A stretch of 64,000 nucleotides of DNA, from assembly GCA_023247255.1 (NCBI GenBank), contig JAHFGV010000005.1, positions 6,067 to 70,066 of the forward strand, read 5' to 3'. Position numbers and translations under genes: made by a program. Below are positions 3,289 through 53,432 of the stretch, one piece after another (the stretch's first letter is position 1; every line of letters starts with the position of its first letter). A model generated the notes under the pieces. That model made no database searches. It had not been told where the DNA came from and was given only the letters and a program-made list of their open reading frames with translations. Origin of the DNA: Candidatus Omnitrophota bacterium. Its GTDB lineage: Bacteria; Omnitrophota; Gorgyraeia; Aquiviventales; Aquiviventaceae.

Positions 3289-3549
3289 GGGGGGAACGGG
3301 GTGGGAGACGTGGGGCGTGGGAGAACAGATTACAAGAGATAAAAAGTCCTACAACCGGTTTTAAAAAAGGGTTCTTCTGGTTTTGCAGTGGGTAAAAGGA
3401 GCAACACTTCCCTCTCCCAAAGGGAGAGGGAGAAGGGCATGCCCATATATCCCGGAAGCGCCTAAAAAAGAACGGGCGATGTCTAGCTTTCAAGATTTAT
3501 GGAGTGCTATTCGCACTTCCCTCGCCCCCCGCCCCGTTCCCTTTACCCC
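3289..3549. repeat. GC-rich element, copy K, with G-run/C-run terminal inverted repeats
   Basis: G-arm 3289-3328 (runs G6,G4,G3,G4,G3) and C-arm 3514-3549 are about 21/26 complementary. Internal perfect hairpin CCCTCTCCC-AAA-GGGAGAGGG (3410-3430). Confidence 0.55.
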
Positions 3550-3603
3550 GGATGCGGGTTTTTCAGCAGTCTGCTGATAGCAAGGATATTGAAACGTAAA
3601 CTC

Positions 3604-11773: not shown

Positions 11774-11882
11774 ATTGCCGATTTTCGATTTTGGGCTGAG
11801 AGAATTTTCGATTGTAGATTTTAGATTGTCGATTGGAAAACACGACAAATCGACAATCGAAAATTGACAATCGACGATTCGT
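11772..11882. repeat. CGATTGTCGATT-unit palindromic element, copy A
   Basis: Starts at the atpF stop. The arms TAGATTGTCGATT and AATCGACAATCGA are complementary. Related to copy B at 19280-19363. Confidence 0.6.
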
Positions 11883-19139: not shown

Positions 19140-19213
19140 GGGCGGTTAGCTCAGTTGGTTAGAGCGTCTGATTTACATTCAGAAGGTCGGGGGTTCGAGT
19201 CCTCCACCGCCCA
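19140..19213 (+). tRNA. tRNA-Val (anticodon TAC)
   Basis: Cloverleaf folded by hand: acceptor GGGCGGT/ACCGCCC, D-arm GCTC..GAGC, anticodon loop TTTACAT, T-loop TTCGAGT. Confidence 0.9.
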
Positions 19214-19279: not shown

Positions 19280-19363
19280 GGGAATTGTCGATTGACGATT
19301 GTCGATTTTTGATTGAACGGCCGTCTTCCAATCGACAATCCAAAATCGACAATCGAAAATTCC
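19280..19363. repeat. CGATTGTCGATT-unit palindromic element, copy B
   Basis: Ends GGGAATTGTCGATT / AATCGAAAATTCCC are 13/14 complementary. Shares AATCGACAATCGAAAATT with copy A. Confidence 0.6.
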
Positions 19364-19433: not shown

Positions 19434-19450
19434 CGAGTCCTCCACCGCCC
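19434..19450 (+). repeat. 17-nt duplicate of the tRNA-Val 3' end
   Basis: CGAGTCCTCCACCGCCC is identical to 19196-19212. Confidence 0.7.
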
Positions 19451-19516: not shown

Positions 19517-20803
19517 ATGTGTGCGCGACTTGTTTTATTCGTTATTAGTCTGCTCCTCGGTTGGTTCAGTAGTCACAGGTTTTGTGCCGCTCAATCCCAA
19601 ACATCCGTTGCCCAAGATTCCAGCGGTTCGTACAACGCCGGGCTCACGCTGGTCGATGTTCCTTATCCGTCGGGGCGCGGTGAGGAAGCGATCATCACAA
19701 CGGCGGTGTGGTATCCGACCCGACAAGCCCAGGATGAATACGCCTATCGATTGACCCAAGACTATATCAGCCAAGTCGCACTGGATGCTCCGGTTGCTCC
19801 AGGAGAGCCTTATCCTTTGGTTATCTATATCCACGGTGGTTTCTCCTCCGGATTCGCCTCATCGTTTTTCACGGAGGAGCTGGCCCGTCACGGCTATGTG
19901 GTGGTGGCCCCGGATTATGTGGATACGATCCCACCGGATTATACGCAGTCCTTGGCCTTCAGCCGGATGCGCCAGGGAAAGACTGCCCGGAATATCCAGG
20001 TTCTCAAAGCCGCCAAGCAATGGGTGGCTGACATGAACGCGGATTCAGATTTCTTTCTCTCTTATCTGGCGGCCCATCGGCTTCCGCAGACCTCGTTTAT
20101 CATCGACTGGATGCTCAGGCAGAATGCTCAGTCTAGCTCGATGTTCTACCAGGCTGTTGATTCCCAGGCGATCGGAGCCATTGGCTGGTCTGAGGGAGGC
20201 GTGACTATTTTGGCAAAGATTGGAGCCCATCCCGATCCATCCGTTCAGGATTCCAGGATCCGCGCAGCCCTGTTACTTTCATCTCCCGCCTTTCCGGATC
20301 GGTTTCAGCGGATTCGCATTCCCATCATGCTCATGGCTGGAGACGATGATGCTCCGGCAGTTCACCCTGAGAATCCCAGGCGTTTGATTGTTGACCAAGC
20401 GCCGGCGCAGAAATATCACCTCGTCCTTAAAGACACGAACCACTTTGATTTTGGTAACCGCGTCTGTGGCAACACCCCGTTGTATCTAGCCGTTACCCAA
20501 AAACCCAAGGCTCGGGTGATTTTCCAGTATGGGTATACCTTTTTTCAAAAACATCTACGTGGGGATTCCTCAGCCGACCGACGATTGACGCAAGCGGATT
20601 CTCTTTTAGCGTATTATCTATACGACACGAATCCTGCGGCCGAAGGGGTGGTTGAATTTGGAAAGGAGCCAGTATCCTCGGGCCGATCTTTAGGATTGGG
20701 TCATCGATTGCGTCAGCGGTCTGGATCGCAAGAGCAAGGTGGGGGAGGATCCAGCCGGCCGCTACGTCAGTTATTTCAGCGCTTGCGCAATCGCTCCGAA
20801 TAA
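19517..20803 (+). CDS. secreted alpha/beta hydrolase (dienelactone hydrolase / PAF-acetylhydrolase-like)
   Basis: 428 aa with a signal peptide, the nucleophile elbow GWSEGG, and a later D and H (MAGDDD, TNHFDF). Basic Gly/Ser/Arg tail. Confidence 0.6.
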   Translation: MCARLVLFVISLLLGWFSSHRFCAAQSQTSVAQDSSGSYNAGLTLVDVPYPSGRGEEAIITTAVWYPTRQAQDEYAYRLTQDYISQVALDAPVAPGEPYPLVIYIHGGFSSGFASSFFTEELARHGYVVVAPDYVDTIPPDYTQSLAFSRMRQGKTARNIQVLKAAKQWVADMNADSDFFLSYLAAHRLPQTSFIIDWMLRQNAQSSSMFYQAVDSQAIGAIGWSEGGVTILAKIGAHPDPSVQDSRIRAALLLSSPAFPDRFQRIRIPIMLMAGDDDAPAVHPENPRRLIVDQAPAQKYHLVLKDTNHFDFGNRVCGNTPLYLAVTQKPKARVIFQYGYTFFQKHLRGDSSADRRLTQADSLLAYYLYDTNPAAEGVVEFGKEPVSSGRSLGLGHRLRQRSGSQEQGGGGSSRPLRQLFQRLRNRSE

Positions 20804-20940
20804 ATTTCGCTGCGCGAATCTATCAGTACCGAACACGTTCAAACCGAGGTGGACGGAAGCTGCGATTCACGATACTATCGTCACTCCGACTGAAATCAGA
20901 GATTTTCTCCGTTACGCGTTTCGCATTGCACGGTTTTTCA

Positions 20941-21106
20941 GGAGGCGCAGCTCAATGGGTTAGGCGTAGCCCCCGCAGCTTTGATCTGTCCCTAGAAATC
21001 GCGAAGCGATTTCAGGGATCAAATCCGAAATGCTTTGCATTCCATGGGACGAAGCAAATCAGTGGGAGGTGGCGGCCTATCGAGCCGTAGGTTGCGGGTT
21101 AGAGCC
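20941..21106 (+). pseudogene. disrupted tRNA-Asp paralogue
   Basis: The 5' part 20941-20963 matches the tRNA-Asp 5' half (3 mismatches). About 100 nt of hairpin-rich insert follows. 21069-21106 matches 23793-23830 (2 mismatches; anticodon becomes ATC). The T-arm and acceptor 3' side are missing. Confidence 0.6.
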
Positions 21107-21126
21107 AAGCAGACGGTGGTAAGTAT

Positions 21127-22193
21127 TAGATCTGTTGCACAATTGCCCAATTTGTAGCATCCTATCCTTAACGCAGAGGAGGAACAAAGGCATGCTACGA
21201 TTTGCCAAACTCGTGCACCACCCGAGGAAACTCTACAGAATGACGGGACTTACGCTTGACCAGTTCCAGACGCTGACGAATCGGCTCACCCCGCTGTGGG
21301 AGCAAGCGGAACGGATGTGCCTCTCGCAGCGCAAGCGAAAGCCACGCCATCGGGAAAGAGTACCAAGTACAAGCTCTCCACGATGGCGGACAAACTCCTG
21401 TGCGTGCTCAGCTTCTACCGCTTCTACCTCTACCTTTGAGCTGCTCGGCTATCTCGTCGGCCTGGATGCCAGCAATATCTGTCGGCTAAAGCCTCGGCTC
21501 GAACCGCTCATTGAGCAGGCAGCCGATCCAAGCCTGGGGCTGTCGCTCCGCCGTCGGCTCCCGCCCGGCGTCAAGAGAATCGGCACCTGGGAGGAACTCG
21601 TGGAGCGCTGTCCGGACTTCGCAGACGTGGTCACTGATGCGACCAAGCAGGCACGACTCCGTCCACCGCGACGCACCCAGCGGCGCTGGTACTCCGGCAA
21701 ACGTAAGCGCCACACACTCAAGACGCAGTTGAGCATCACTCGGCAGAGTGGCCGGATCCTCCATATCAGTTCAACCGTCCCGGGCCGTGTCCATGACTAC
21801 GCGCTCTTGAAGCGGACGCGACTGGACGAACGGCTGCCGCCGAAGACGCGCCTCACCCTGGATCGGGGGTATGATGGTGCCATGACGGACTATCCGACTC
21901 CCGCTATCGCGCTGCCCGTCAAGCGTCGAGGCAACCACCAGGTCCTGACGCGCTCGGAGCGGGCATTCAACCGCCTCCAGGCGCGGCAGCGGATCATCGT
22001 GGAGCATGTCCCAAGTTGCGTGAAGAAGTACCAGCTCCTCGCGCAGGTCTACCGCCACCGGATCGCGGACTACAACCACCGCTTTCGCAACATTGCGGCC
22101 TTGACGAACTTCCGCCTAACGCCGACGGTGACGTAACCGAACCCGGACGCGCGGAGCCTTCATCGTGTCAAGGGCAACTGCGCAATAGGTCTA
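21127..22193 (+). mobile_element. IS element (IS5/Harbinger-type DDE_Tnp_4 transposase)
   Basis: Imperfect terminal inverted repeats: TAGATCTGTTGCACAATTGCCC (21127-21148) against the reverse complement of 22172-22193 (about 17/21). One transposase ORF lies inside. Confidence 0.7.
21192..22136 (+). pseudogene. DDE_Tnp_4 transposase with compensating frameshifts
   Basis: ATG 21192 follows GAGGAGG. Core motifs DATKQARLRP, YSGKRKRHTLK, PGRVHDY and DRGYDG are present. The family-typical segment KYKLSTMADKLLCVLSFYRFYL is readable only in the +2 frame between about 21350 and 21431. Confidence 0.6.
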
Positions 22194-22278
22194 TTGAATT
22201 AGCTCATGTTGAAATGTAGTGGAACTTGTAGTGGCTGAGCTAACGTGAAAGTACAGTTTCGTAGATGAGGAGCTAACC

Positions 22279-22812
22279 GTGAAGAAGCTATCGCTGGCAA
22301 TTAGGCTCATAGCGGTCTTGCTAATTCTTAATGGAGCGGGAAGGGTAGCTGTTGTTGCTTTTGGCCTGGTAGTCTTTTCAAGAGCGATGGAACCAATCGA
22401 GCTATCGCCAGAGTGGGAAAAGGTCTTGAGCAGAACAGTCCAACGGGGCGCGATTTCACCCGAAGAAGCTGTGCAAAGGAGAGAGCAGGCTAAAAAGGTA
22501 CGTGAGCAGCAAGGGGCGTTCCCTGAGTTTAGGTCTTGGGGTGCAGTACAGGTGCTTGCGCTCATAACCAGTTTACTTGGCATGGGGAAGCTGATTGCTG
22601 GTATCGGTATCTTAATGCTGAGGGATTGGGCGCGGACGTTAGCCGTGTGGCAGTCTGGATTGTGGATTGCGTTTAGTTTTTCGTTCCAGTTATTGCTCAG
22701 GGTTTCTCAAAAGTTCCATAATGTTATCCTAGGCCATCAACAAGTAGGCCATACGGTTGGTCAATGGGTCATGTTCTTCTGCTGGGTTATCTTGAATGGC
22801 TACCTCATCTAG
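22279..22812 (+). CDS. hypothetical membrane protein
   Basis: 177 aa with a GTG start and 4 predicted TM segments. No family recognised. Confidence 0.4.
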   Translation: MKKLSLAIRLIAVLLILNGAGRVAVVAFGLVVFSRAMEPIELSPEWEKVLSRTVQRGAISPEEAVQRREQAKKVREQQGAFPEFRSWGAVQVLALITSLLGMGKLIAGIGILMLRDWARTLAVWQSGLWIAFSFSFQLLLRVSQKFHNVILGHQQVGHTVGQWVMFFCWVILNGYLI

Positions 22813-22888
22813 CTTTTCCTTCAACCTTCGGTGAAAGCACAGTTTCAAAAGCAAACGTAGCTCGTTTCGTCAGCTTTCACACTTAAAA

Positions 22889-23098
22889 TCACATCCTGCT
22901 CGACACTCCTCCTGACACCGCCACAGGAAATCGGTTAACATCCTTGTCGTACTCAGGTGAGAGATGCGCGTAATGCTCCATCGTAATTCTGGGGTTTGAG
23001 TGTCCCATCCATTTCTGGATTTTGAAAATGCTGACTTCTGCCTGAGCGACTTGGTGGTGAAGCGAAAGAGCTTGACGAATACAATAGAATATAATACA
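22889..23098 (-). pseudogene. tyrosine recombinase (phage integrase) C-terminal remnant
   Basis: A minus-strand frame not listed in the track reads ..LSLHHQVAQAEVSIFKIQKWMGHSNPRITMEHYAHLSPEY... This covers box II with the catalytic His and Tyr context. Only about 69 codons are open. Confidence 0.6.
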
Positions 23099-23123
23099 TT
23101 ATAGATATATTCAGGAGGCTCCC

Positions 23124-23366
23124 ATGGCAAAAGTGGTCACGGTACGGCTTTCGGAGGAGGACTATCGAAAGATTGCAGCCGTCGCAAAACGTGAGCGGCG
23201 CCCGCTTTCGAACTTTATGACGCTGATGGTGATCAAGGGCATCGAGGAGGGCGATTACGTCGATGCCGTGGAGATGGATCAGATCCTCGCGGACAAGTCT
23301 CTGAGGGCTAAGTTACGGGCAGGGCACTACGACGCCAAGCGACGCAAAGGCAAGCTCGTTGGCTGA
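23124..23366 (+). CDS. CopG/RHH-family antitoxin
   Basis: 80 aa with an N-terminal ribbon-helix-helix (KVVTVRLSEEDYRKIAAVAKRERRPLSNFM). GGAGG lies upstream. Confidence 0.75.
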   Translation: MAKVVTVRLSEEDYRKIAAVAKRERRPLSNFMTLMVIKGIEEGDYVDAVEMDQILADKSLRAKLRAGHYDAKRRKGKLVG

Positions 23367-23637
23367 TTTTCGTATCTTCGAGACCTCACAGTTTCAGAAG
23401 GACCTTCAGCAGGACTTCCGAGGGCAACAGGCGCGCATTGAACGCAAGCTCGCCACGTATGTCTATCCCCAGCTGCGAGCGAATTCCTACATCGGGAAGA
23501 ATATCAAGAAACTTCGGGATGCCGTTCCTGAGACCTGGCGGTATCGCATCGGGGATTACCGATTTTTCTACAGGGTCGATGAGCGGCAACGACTCATCTT
23601 TATGCTGACTGCCGACCATCGTGGTCACGCGTATTGA
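23359..23637 (+). CDS. RelE/ParE-family toxin
   Basis: 92 aa with WRYRIGDYRFFYRVDERQRLIFMLTADHR. Overlaps the antitoxin gene by 8 nt. Confidence 0.8.
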   Translation: MADFRIFETSQFQKDLQQDFRGQQARIERKLATYVYPQLRANSYIGKNIKKLRDAVPETWRYRIGDYRFFYRVDERQRLIFMLTADHRGHAY

Positions 23638-23768
23638 ACGATAACCCTGAAGTGATCAGCTTAACAGTTGACGGCAGGAAAAATCCACGATACCATCATC
23701 CCCTCGACGAGAAGCTGGAAGATTTTCTCTCATTACACACTCCACCTTAAACATTACACAGCTTTTCA

Positions 23769-23842
23769 GGGGGCGTAGCTCAATTGGTTAGAGTGGCGGC
23801 CTGTCGAGCCGTAGGTTGCGGGTTCGAGCCCCGTCGCCCCCG
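23769..23842 (+). tRNA. tRNA-Asp (anticodon GTC)
   Basis: Acceptor GGGGGCG/CGCCCCC, D-arm GCTC..GAGT, anticodon loop CTGTCGA, T-loop TTCGAGC. Confidence 0.9.
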
Positions 23843-23927
23843 TTTTTGAACTGACGGAAGCCGTTATCTCGGAAGAGGTGACGGCTTCGTCGTCTTCTGG
23901 GATGAAAAAACGTAACCGGGTTGAAGC

Positions 23928-24068
23928 TGTTTTTATGATGATCCACAGCCAGCTCTTGTACGAAATTCTCAGCCGGTTGATCCATCGGACCGAGAAGTCG
24001 TGGAACGTGTAACCGCAGCGTTTACAGCGGTACCGTTTACCCACGATCCTTTGGTTTTTCAAGCACAC
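23928..24068 (-). pseudogene. IS1595-like transposase N-terminal zinc-ribbon fragment
   Basis: KRYRCKRCGYTFHDFSVRWINRLRISYKSWLWII resembles the IS1595-family N-terminus as I recall it. The rest of track ORF 23766..24068 is antisense to the tRNA and was ignored. Confidence 0.4.
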
Positions 24069-24101: not shown

Positions 24102-24121
24102 TGCGCAATAGGTCTATTGAA
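24102..24121 (+). repeat. solo copy of the IS right end plus flank
   Basis: TGCGCAATAGGTCTATTGAA is identical to 22179-22198. Confidence 0.6.
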
Positions 24122-40157: not shown

Positions 40158-40213
40158 GACTCATGAAACAGACGTGAGCACTGCCACTAACCTCGATGCA
40201 TTTTGTAAAACCC
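40158..40213 (+). repeat. 55-nt satellite copy of the 2645-2699 element end
   Basis: GACTCATGAAACAGACGTGAGCACTGCCACTAACC is identical in both copies. CGATGCATTTTG..AAAACCC follows with 2 differences. Confidence 0.8.
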
Positions 40214-42250
40214 CAGTTACGACTGACGCCTTCCAAGTCTTCTTGCACCTGCTGTAGTGAATCCATCTGCTGCAGCGAATCTCGCGAAAGGTTGACAGGC
40301 TTGTCTGGCCAGCGTCACACGCCGAGCCTCATCGTAACCGGCAACCCCAACGTCGGGAAAAGCGTCATCTTCCAGCTCCTCACCGGCCGCTACGCCACCG
40401 TGTCGAACTATCCGGGCACCACGGTTGCAGTTACCCGAGGATCGGCTTCGTTAGACGGCCGGGTGGTTCGCGTCTACGACACGCCAGGAATCAATAGCTT
40501 GTTCGCCGCCTCAGAAGATGAGCTGGTCGCACGCGATCTGCTGCTGGGTGAACGAACCACCGTGGTGCAGGTTAGCGATGCCAAGAACCTGCTACGTGCC
40601 CTCACACTGACCTTGGAACTGGCTGAAGCTGGACTTCCATCCGTCCTGGATCTGAACATGATGGACGAAGCCAGGGAACGTCGAATCAGCATTGATACGA
40701 AGAAGCTCTCAGGGTTACTTGGGATCTCGGTTGTGCCGACCATTGCAACGCAGCGGTGGGGTATCGAGCGGTTGCGTCGAGTGATCCTGCAGGCACAGCA
40801 GGCTCGGGTTGGCGTTTGCTACCCCAAAGTGATTGAAGATGCCATTGCCAAGATGGTGGAGGTCCTACCAAAGACGCTGGGCGTACGGAAAGCCCTGGCG
40901 TTGTTCTGGCTTGCTGGGGATCGGAACATCATCGAGCAGCTCAAGAAGCAATTCGACCCATCAATCATCGAGGCGCTGACGGCAATCGCTGCGCAGGCTC
41001 AAGAACAGACCTCTGGCCCATTAGGGTTGCTGATCAGTCAAGCCCGACTCCGCGAGGCCGAGCGACTCGTCAAGCAGGTGATGACGACTGCACCTCTGGA
41101 GCGCCAGCGGTGGTTTTACCGCCTGGGTGATTGGGCGATGCACCCGGTTTGGGGGGTGCCCATCCTCGTTGGCGTCCTGGTCATGATGTACTTCCTCGTC
41201 GGAAATCTCGCAGCTCAGCGTGGCGTAGATTTCCTAGAAGACGTGGTCTTTGGGCGCTACCTCACCCCAGTCTTTCAGTGGGTTGTTCAAGGGGCGATCC
41301 CTTGGGGGTGGCTCAAGGCGCTCTTCATCGGTGAGTACGGCCTGCTGACGATGGCTCTGCCCTACGCTTTTGCGATCATCCTGCCCATCGTGGGGATGTT
41401 CTTTCTCTGCTTCGGATTGCTTGAGGATGTGGGCTACCTTCCTCGACTAGCCGTGATGGCCAATCGCTTTTGTCGGCTCCTGGGTCTCAACGGCAAGGCG
41501 GTGCTCCCACTCGTGCTGGGGTTGGGATGCGACACAATGGCCACGATGACCGCCCGCATCCTCGACTCGGATCGGGATCGGATCATCACAACGCTCTTGT
41601 TGGCACTCGGCATCCCTTGTTCCGCTCAACTGGGCGTCATCCTAGCGATGCTGGCGGGCCGCCCGCCGTTGGCCCTGGGGATTTGGCTTGGCGTGTTACT
41701 CATGGTGATCATTGTGGTTGGTCAAGCCGCGTCAAGAATCCTGCCGGGCGAGGAGAGCCCGTTTCTCTACGAGATCCCACCGCTTCGCACGCCGAAGCTG
41801 TCGAATGTGCTGATCAAGACGCTGGGTCGCATCGAGTGGTATGTGAAAGAAGCCGTCCCGCTGTTCTTCCTGGGAACCCTGGTGTTATTCCTCCTCGATG
41901 TGACAGGAGCCCTGGCGGTCTTCGAGCGAATCGGGACCCCGCTCATTGTCTCGTGGCTCGGGCTGCCAGCCAAAGCGACCAGTGCATTTCTGGTGGGATT
42001 TCTCCGACGGGATTTTGGTGCGGCCGGGCTCTTCGCGCTTCAGCGAAACGGAATGTTATCTGGAGTCCAGACCGTCGTCAGCCTCGTTACCATCACGCTG
42101 TTTGTCCCCTGCATCGCCCAGTACTTCATGATGGTCAAAGAGCGCGGCTGGAAACTCGCAAATCTGATGGCGGGGTTTGTCTTCGGGATGGCGCTGCTTG
42201 TTGGAGGTCTCCTCTTGCGCGTTCTCACCCTGTTGCGAGTTACCCTATGA
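40196..42250 (+). CDS. feoB: ferrous iron transporter FeoB
   Basis: G-domain motifs GNPNVGKS and NYPGTTV, followed by a polytopic permease. The ATG at 40196 lies in the repeat, so the true start is uncertain (TTG near 40293 is possible). Confidence 0.9.
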   Translation: MHFVKPQLRLTPSKSSCTCCSESICCSESRERLTGLSGQRHTPSLIVTGNPNVGKSVIFQLLTGRYATVSNYPGTTVAVTRGSASLDGRVVRVYDTPGINSLFAASEDELVARDLLLGERTTVVQVSDAKNLLRALTLTLELAEAGLPSVLDLNMMDEARERRISIDTKKLSGLLGISVVPTIATQRWGIERLRRVILQAQQARVGVCYPKVIEDAIAKMVEVLPKTLGVRKALALFWLAGDRNIIEQLKKQFDPSIIEALTAIAAQAQEQTSGPLGLLISQARLREAERLVKQVMTTAPLERQRWFYRLGDWAMHPVWGVPILVGVLVMMYFLVGNLAAQRGVDFLEDVVFGRYLTPVFQWVVQGAIPWGWLKALFIGEYGLLTMALPYAFAIILPIVGMFFLCFGLLEDVGYLPRLAVMANRFCRLLGLNGKAVLPLVLGLGCDTMATMTARILDSDRDRIITTLLLALGIPCSAQLGVILAMLAGRPPLALGIWLGVLLMVIIVVGQAASRILPGEESPFLYEIPPLRTPKLSNVLIKTLGRIEWYVKEAVPLFFLGTLVLFLLDVTGALAVFERIGTPLIVSWLGLPAKATSAFLVGFLRRDFGAAGLFALQRNGMLSGVQTVVSLVTITLFVPCIAQYFMMVKERGWKLANLMAGFVFGMALLVGGLLLRVLTLLRVTL

Positions 42251-53182: not shown

Positions 53183-53347
53183 GGTTCTTTGGGGTGTGAT
53201 CGCGTAGGGTACGTGGTGGGATGACAATTCGAAACGACGCTCCGAGTTCAGCGACCTAAGCTCGCGTGATGGCGGGGATGGTCCCTGAACCCCTGTCCCA
53301 CACGCAACGCCGCGTGTAGGACCGGGCCGGGAAGGAAACGACTCGGC

Positions 53348-53432
53348 CTCCTCGTGTTCGGAAAGGAGACGGCAGGCTGGAGTATCGTCAAGCCAGCTTC
53401 TCTTTCCACACGAGGAGCTGGCTTGTTTCGTC
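53348..53432 (+). promoter_or_regulatory. leader RNA with alternative stems (attenuator or riboswitch candidate)
   Basis: Stem CTCCTCGTGT (53348-57) / ACACGAGGAG (53408-17) competes with the terminator-like stem AAGCCAGCT (53390-98) / AGCTGGCTT (53416-24), which is followed by GTTTCGT. Confidence 0.3.

Follow-up and report, generated by a model that had tools for sequence, protein, structure and literature searches.

The left end of a degenerate insertion sequence (IS) lies just beyond what reads as most of a second tRNA-Asp gene, some 2.7 kb upstream of an intact one, in a 64-kb stretch of an Omnitrophota genome (the window, 64,000 nucleotides analysed as a whole). Between the two tRNA parts of this copy lie about 100 nt of strong hairpins. 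What is this interrupted copy, how did it lose its end, and what is the structured DNA inside it? A sequence-only reading had offered two histories: a tRNA gene killed by two successive insertions, or an original copy displaced after an element supplied the new tRNA-Asp. Table 1 gives the coordinates of the features discussed below.

Table 1. Features at and between the two tRNA-Asp copies, in window coordinates
Feature	Position	Strand	Evidence or detail
Promoter/leader of dead copy, homologous to 23667-23768	20849-20940	+	alignment
tRNA-Asp pseudogene, 5' part	20941-20963	+	3 mismatches in 23 vs intact copy
105-nt insertion in D-stem 3' strand	20964-21068	+	alignment, covariance model
Element 5' strands	P1 20969-20976; 5-nt bulge 20977-20981; P2 20982-20988; P3 20989-20992	+	hand and model alignment
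Hairpin A	20995-21013	+	GAAATCGC-GAA-GCGATTTC
Hairpin C	21015-21026	+	one base lost
Hairpin B	21027-21043	+	one A.C mismatch
Element 3' strands	P3 21046-21049; bulge CGAAG 21050-21054; P2 21055-21061; P1 21062-21069	+	
tRNA-Asp pseudogene, 3' block	21069-21106	+	36/38 vs 23793-23830
Gap between end of tRNA homology and IS terminus	21107-21121		15 bases
Degenerate IS	21122-22198	+	IRL 21125-21148, IRR 22172-22198 (19/24 match); DDE_Tnp_4 PF13359, E 6e-21
ORF, 177 aa	22279-22812		no Pfam match
Tyrosine recombinase C-terminus remnant	22889-23098	-	PF00589; ...KWMGHSNPRITMEHYAHLSPEY...; KWMGHSNPRITMEHYAHL
RHH antitoxin	23124-23366	+	Pfam
ParE-type toxin	23359-23637	+	Pfam
Leader/promoter of intact tRNA-Asp(GTC)	23667-23768	+	promoter scan
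Intact tRNA-Asp(GTC)	23769-23842	+	ARAGORN, Rfam
Solo IS right-end copy	24102-24121	+	identical to 22179-22198

A dead second copy of tRNA-Asp

ARAGORN and Rfam (RF00005) call only two tRNA genes in the window, tRNA-Val (19140-19213) and the intact tRNA-Asp(GTC); positions 20849-21106 are a dead paralogue of the latter. Both blocks of tRNA homology proposed from the sequence alone stand up to alignment. The first extends from the acceptor 5' strand through the D-stem 5' strand and D-loop to the opening base of the D-stem 3' strand, and agrees with positions 1-23 of the intact tRNA at 20/23. The second, the best-conserved 38 nt between the two copies, runs from the last D-stem base through the anticodon arm, variable loop, T-stem 5' strand and T-loop, and stops one base into the T-stem 3' strand (21106). 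Taken alone the 5' match is weak, because tRNA-Val at 19140 matches the same 23 nt with 4 mismatches, and the sequence-only reading had allowed that it might prove insignificant, leaving nothing beyond a 38-nt att-type repeat. It did not: homology extends about 90 nt upstream of 20941 into the leader and promoter. Aligned locally, 20849-20963 and 23667-23791 score 39 (7.8 +/- 1.2 for shuffles, z 26), and the leaders, about 65-70% identical over their ~90 nt, give z 11 by themselves. Since the 5' similarity is significant, what the locus holds is another copy of the gene, promoter included, and not merely an att-type repeat. The promoter-like site is TTGACG-17-TACCAT in the intact copy, found by promoter scan, and TGGACG-17-TACTAT in the dead copy, where it is an 8/12 match by eye that falls under the scan's cut-off. 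The junction of tRNA 5' half and insert recurs base for base in contigs L001 and L002, from two other sequencing runs, and is therefore no assembly artefact of the window. Both of these contigs (window 20780-21017) end precisely at the end of hairpin A, as expected if other metagenome sequences share the hairpin and then diverge.

The left copy is an ordinary pseudogene. It differs from the intact gene by G3>A, U8>C, one D-loop base, G34>A and C56>A, leaving it with C8, A56 and the anticodon ATC instead of GTC; the changes at U8, G34 and C56 hit invariant or identity positions of working tRNAs. As the sequence-only reading had remarked, the 3' side is missing, specifically the T-stem 3' strand and the acceptor 3' strand. 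ARAGORN calls no tRNA in 20700-21300, nor does Rfam even at E up to 10. Only a sequence without the insert, with one A put back and the final 12 nt taken from the intact copy, is recognised by ARAGORN, as tRNA-Asp(atc). Of what a functional tRNA gene has, the copy thus lacks a cloverleaf call, the 3' strands, and U8, C56 and the GUC anticodon.

That the IS left end lies about 20 nt past the tRNA homology had been read correctly from the sequence. The termini of the IS are placed near 21122 and at 22198 by comparison with the solo right end, which puts the left one 15-18 nt past the end of homology; the DDE_Tnp_4 transposase frame is broken by frameshifts, and has stops in its N-terminal part. 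That the IS truncated the gene is a different matter. The IS does adjoin the copy, but homology has already ended at 21106, and the 15 bases before the terminus have no above-chance match to the 3' end of the intact copy or to its downstream region. The missing 3' piece (CCCCGTCGCCTCCG-like) is found neither near the locus, nor after the IS right end at 22198, nor elsewhere in the window. Because homology stops in the T-loop before the IS, with no 3' piece past it, plain IS insertion fails to explain the truncation; either a deletion or a previous recombination break within the T-loop must be invoked. Of the two successive insertions proposed to have killed the gene, then, the 105-nt insertion is real and simple truncation by the IS is unsupported.

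The DNA between the copies and the history of the locus

Beyond the IS, the segment between the two copies carries an ORF without Pfam match, a remnant of a tyrosine recombinase, and an RHH/ParE toxin-antitoxin pair, and its GC content falls to 0.47-0.50 over 22200-23200 (0.55-0.60 outside). The recombinase remnant amounts to about 60-70 residues (PF00589 positions 139-170 of 172, E 5e-4), and stays under the Pfam gathering score because it is a fragment. Integrase remnant, RHH/ParE pair, and low-GC DNA together indicate a decayed integrative element, and the DNA between the tRNA-Asp copies looks like the wreck of one. The 2.7 kb would then consist of this wrecked element plus the IS; a rearrangement within it, not a simple IS insertion, may have taken the 3' end of the dead copy, and the right-hand copy would now provide the tRNA-Asp. 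The full IS and the solo 20-nt IS right end, which sits just downstream of the intact tRNA-Asp, bracket the segment carrying the working gene. Beside the solo end is a minus-strand ORF fragment (23766-24068) with a CxxC zinc-ribbon-like motif (KRYRCKRCGYTFH).

The suggestion that the left copy was displaced by an element supplying the working gene gains support here, from the integrase remnant, the toxin-antitoxin pair and the low GC content. Its difficulty is the extent of the repeat, which covers promoter, 5' half and anticodon/T region and not the 3' end, with the integrase C-terminal remnant between the two copies of it. A classical 3'-end att duplication would exclude the promoter and the 5' half, and in bacteria it is normally the 3' end of the gene, not the 5' end, that an integrative element replaces. 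For site-specific integration, as opposed to an old tandem duplication, to have made the two copies, an incoming tRNA-Asp 5' portion with its leader would have to have recombined with the resident gene in the region from anticodon to T-loop, stranding the resident 5' part and making the working gene at the other end a hybrid. The T-loop is the classical crossover place of tRNA-targeting integrases, and it is there that the homology of the dead copy ends. The conservation of the 38-nt anticodon/T block above all others also fits such a crossover, as do the positions of the integrase remnant, toxin-antitoxin genes and low-GC DNA exactly between the copies, and the att-like 17-nt repeat at the neighbouring tRNA-Val. 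However, leaders just ~65-70% identical would be as readily expected from an old duplication or from capture of a foreign copy, and the integrase is a short remnant under the Pfam threshold. A Caldiarchaeum tRNA locus offers a comparable layout (PMC3293823), and we keep site-specific integration as a possible, though somewhat unlikely, origin of the pair.

No close relative was found to represent the ancestral locus: the upstream hydrolase has a best homologue only 52% identical, the paralogous loci fetched are without synteny, and look-ups with window proteins return short contigs of the same organism only. The tRNA-Val/tRNA-Asp neighbourhood appears to be a landing pad for mobile DNA in which a redundant tRNA copy was left decaying. 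The last 17 nt of tRNA-Val (CGAGTCCTCCACCGCCC, 19196-19212) recur at 19434-19450, enclosing ~220 nt in the manner of att sites. Between these repeats, at 19284-19362, sits one copy of a second palindromic family (AATCGACAATCG-type units), with another at 11802-11871, 7.5 kb apart (40 nt are 93% complementary). Elsewhere in the window, a 59-nt repeat, 93% identical, is present at 2423-2703 and 40158-40216, 37.5 kb apart, with a cluster of TCATG-rich direct and inverted repeats beside its first copy, and a molybdenum-cofactor riboswitch (RF01055, 61.6 bits) lies at 53228-53385 on the plus strand.

The 105-nt insert and its relatives

The intact paralogue represents the empty site, and is therefore direct evidence that the element can insert into new DNA. 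The ~100 nt of strong hairpins noticed between the tRNA parts are accordingly supported as a true insertion of a discrete structured element: 105 nt that fold strongly, replace one A of the tRNA, and consist of GCGTA plus a cloverleaf-like element. Modelling predicts for the latter a cloverleaf with a four-way junction and three conserved triloop hairpins. Its closing stem begins with the 8 bp of P1 (RCCCCYGC/GCRGGGGY), continues past a 5-nt 5' bulge into the 7 bp of P2, and ends with the 4 bp of P3, which has a ~5-nt 3' bulge. A TA dinucleotide follows P3 at the junction, and then come hairpins A (8 bp), C (5 bp), and B (7 bp), every loop being 3 nt long. (The hairpin quoted in the sequence-only reading is located at 20991-21018.) In the window copy two pairs of P1 and one of P2 are broken. 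At the junction of tRNA and insert (20963-20970), GGCGTAGC equals positions 4-11 of the intact tRNA-Asp, which may reflect chance, microhomology or the remains of an earlier rearrangement.

This insert belongs to a rare family of ~100-170-nt elements, of which the window holds a somewhat decayed copy. An exact 28-mer of the hairpin is found in 2 of 185,579 species genomes, on one contig each (a Planctomycetia MAG, L004, and an Omnitrophota MAG, L003), and a 23-mer in three sediment metagenome contigs (L005, L006, L007). The similarity of L004 to the window spans the whole insert. A covariance model built from four members matches the window at 20969-21069 with 97.9 bits (E 8e-19), where the next best match scores 12.8 bits, and gives 124 bits to L004, 87.5 to L007, 72.3 to L006, and 42 to L003, with L005 partial. 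The model also finds a further member at 72 bits, built of other helix sequences, in two near-identical Mu-like phage contigs (L019/L022) that encode a Mu-type transposition protein and a terminase; further pattern scans of viral contigs yield these two only. BLAST finds no plasmid or phage match of the element, and literature searches find its hairpin sequences in no paper. It is absent from Rfam as well: the search of the folded insert matches no family, and no Rfam 15 family overlaps the element in the window, L003, L004, L006, L007 or L019 at E up to 5-10, apart from chance matches to microRNA models far under their gathering scores.

Members range from 97 to 166 nt, with 0-3 extra hairpins between A and C (2-3 in L006 and L007). 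L003 has the core without P1/P2 and an expanded hairpin B. Hairpin A is identical in the window and in L003 through L007, while the phage member L019 has GAAATTGC-CAT-GCAATTTC; this invariance is a matter of ascertainment, because the members were found through hairpin A. Its tip, GCGAAGC, is a known hyper-stable DNA mini-hairpin (PMC13037366), to which we give no weight, the loop of the phage member being CAT.

A hand alignment of five members, which was fitted to the structure, has standard pairs in 96% of cells and double-sided compensatory changes in 14 of 39 base pairs. For example, P2 occurs as TGATTCG/CGAATCA, TGCTTCG/CGAAGCA, TTTCTTG/CAAGAAA, and ACATTTC/GAAATGT. Neither figure was reached by any of 2000 within-pair shuffles, which averaged 4.8 double-sided pairs with a maximum of 10. 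The substitution pattern is compensatory, not codon-like. The window copy is the most damaged (5 broken pairs vs 0-2 in other members), and folds at z -3.1; for the L004 copy the folding energy is -63.7 kcal/mol (z -9.2). The two strands fold with nearly equal stability, so that folding identifies no transcribed strand, and the wobble asymmetry (1 G.T vs 4 A.C, mostly in the decayed window copy) involves too few pairs to pick an RNA strand.

Other structured modules lie near the relatives. A GC-rich palindrome, CCTGCCTGCCGGCAG(G/A)CAGG, is located 10-50 nt upstream of the element in L004 (3511-3530) and L006 (2363-2377), and is absent from the remaining 51 loci fetched; L004 and L007 both have a CCCTTCGnnTnCGCTCAGG module flanking the element. 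AT-rich genomes bearing the element seem to collect clusters of GC-rich hairpin modules. L006 also carries a c-di-GMP-I-GGC riboswitch (3487-3590, minus strand), whose 59.4 bits are right at the gathering score.

Nature of the element and comparison with known systems

The element is most likely a small non-autonomous palindromic mobile element, which would be an unusual low-copy variant of the MITE/REP-like kind with a four-way junction. For the locus as a whole, we put a probability of roughly 70% on a dead tRNA-Asp paralogue that carries a decayed copy of such an element beside a wrecked integrative element. The element might be moved in trans by an enzyme recognising its folded or inverted-repeat ends, and would land in non-essential DNA, which here would be a redundant tRNA gene. 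Presence and absence among relatives can be seen at L003, where the element occupies a 289-nt spacer between cmk and lepA; the corresponding spacer of four syntenic relatives, whose LepA is 85-93% identical, measures 0-90 nt and gives no model match. Neighbour genes differ at each locus (lepA, inositol monophosphatase, a LacI-type gene, phage early genes), those downstream being the IS, lepA, inositol monophosphatase, the LacI-type gene, which is convergent, and phage early genes.

Low copy number, no target-site duplication, and no matching transposase count against the mobile reading. A full-model search with filters off finds one copy in the window, and ~400 kb of other loci hold none besides those that brought the loci in. 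The flanks of the five insertions in the window, L004, L006, L007 and L019 show no consistent target-site duplication; in the window one target base is replaced, not duplicated. No transposase with matching ends was found: the inverted repeats of the adjacent IS are unrelated, and no transposase lies beside the element in L003-L007. Also against mobile DNA are the conservation near the junction and the compensatory changes, which are what a functional RNA would show.

Several other identities were considered and rejected. A high-copy repeat does not agree with the single copy in the window, and a ribozyme has neither an Rfam match nor, by eye, a core resembling hammerhead or twister-type. No reverse-transcriptase gene lies immediately downstream at element loci, as would be expected of a retron ncRNA. 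The ends (RCCCCYGC ... GCRGGGGY) are without the RYYYAAC ... GTTRRRY core sites of integron attC; GTTAGGC appears at the window junction only, where it is tRNA D-loop sequence. CRISPR-repeat mimicry was considered and dropped. The element does not target tRNA genes in general, because its removal (625 boundary deletions per locus, 5-6 loci) left ARAGORN with no tRNA to find; a T-loop-like TTCAAATCCCGC after the L004 copy is for the same reason treated as chance.

It is conceivable, though we would not favour it, that the insert represents an undescribed class, horizontally mobile, essentially single-copy, and built on a conserved four-way junction, with members in Planctomycetota, Omnitrophota, and a transposable phage. 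Such a class, on an equally tentative footing, might be a travelling functional RNA, or DNA moved without target duplication by way of its folded cloverleaf. That the family is a functional structured RNA outright, an ncRNA or a cis-acting module spreading horizontally, phages included, is the main rival reading; we consider it unlikely, and with it the corollary that the copy in the window is dead or hitch-hiking and is read from the promoter of the former tRNA gene. Covariation in 14/39 pairs, with junction-proximal bases conserved across genomes of very different GC, speaks for an RNA, as does the presence of a single copy per genome where this could be judged. Variable hairpins confined to one fixed place are seen in many RNA families, and the element shares the orientation of the downstream gene in L003, L004 and L007, and of the tRNA in the window. 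The phage copy, however, is opposite to its flanking genes, no neighbour gene is conserved, and close relatives do without the element. Its insertion within the body of a tRNA gene is also awkward for a functional RNA, as are the failure of any Rfam family to match even at E up to 5-10 and the near-equal folding of both strands, which marks none as transcribed. The idea that the 105 nt are an intron, in a gene functional now or recently, fits a compact and highly structured insert within the tRNA body but is extremely improbable, given the loss of the T-stem 3' and acceptor strands, the three mutated invariant or identity positions, a D-stem site unused by bacterial group I tRNA introns, a length of 105 nt that is too short for group I, no match to any intron or ribozyme family (Rfam), and the failure of excision to restore a tRNA at five other loci (625 boundary combinations per locus).

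Of the two components, the pseudogene is of little consequence by itself; the insert family is moderately interesting, as a conserved and covarying cloverleaf element, found in different phyla and a phage, that is absent from Rfam and from the literature searched. If widespread, it would be a new family among the small structured mobile elements of bacteria; alternatively, it might be a new portable RNA. It would also give a handle on its mobiliser.

Among known systems, group I introns in bacterial tRNA genes are likewise structured insertions within the gene body. They occupy the anticodon loop, measure at least about 200 nt, and match Rfam Intron_gpI, whereas the insert lies in the D-stem, is 105 nt long, and has no Intron_gpI match. 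REP/REPIN sequences are short palindromes with a conserved 5' tetranucleotide, present in very many copies in genomes that encode a RAYT gene; the single-copy behaviour of the element argues against its membership. The BOX elements of Streptococcus pneumoniae, modular (boxA-boxB(n)-boxC), high-copy, and restricted to one genus, resemble it in having conserved 5' and 3' modules around a variable middle, which here consists of the 0-3 hairpins between A and C. Its sequence does not resemble that of BOX, and the comparison is one of architecture.

The arrangement of the locus recalls genomic islands at tRNA genes and, more closely, the tRNA-Thr of Caldiarchaeum, in which a 5' tRNA fragment lies 1.8 kb upstream of the working gene with a recombinase gene between (PMC3293823). 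In both cases a tRNA fragment is found 1.8-2.7 kb upstream of a gene of the same identity, with a recombinase, or its remnant, in between; but that locus is archaeal and its introns are spliced, while this one is bacterial, its recombinase is a remnant, and the fragment bears an unrelated structured insert and adjoins an IS.

A further comparison is with bacterial MITEs and small palindromic repeats (Correia/NEMIS, ERIC, Rickettsia palindromic elements, REP/REPIN). Like the element, these are ~100-170 nt long without coding capacity, have inverted-repeat ends that pair into a long stem with a strong predicted fold, and occupy intergenic or dispensable DNA, occasionally the inside of genes, with presence or absence varying between close relatives (PMC10969869, PMC2229807). 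In common with MITEs, the element is small, has terminal inverted repeats (P1 8 nt plus P2 7 nt), and contains no ORF; target-site duplication, several copies per genome, and ends shared with an autonomous IS are the MITE features not seen in it. Copy numbers vary among MITEs, with 1-22 copies for MITEAba12, and some reach down to 1 per genome (reviews PMC10969869, PMC2229807). The element departs from MITEs in having neither target-site duplication nor a parent IS with the same ends, in numbering one per genome where judged, in its fold, a four-way junction bearing three conserved triloop hairpins instead of one long hairpin, and in its spread across phyla and a phage with substantial compensatory divergence.
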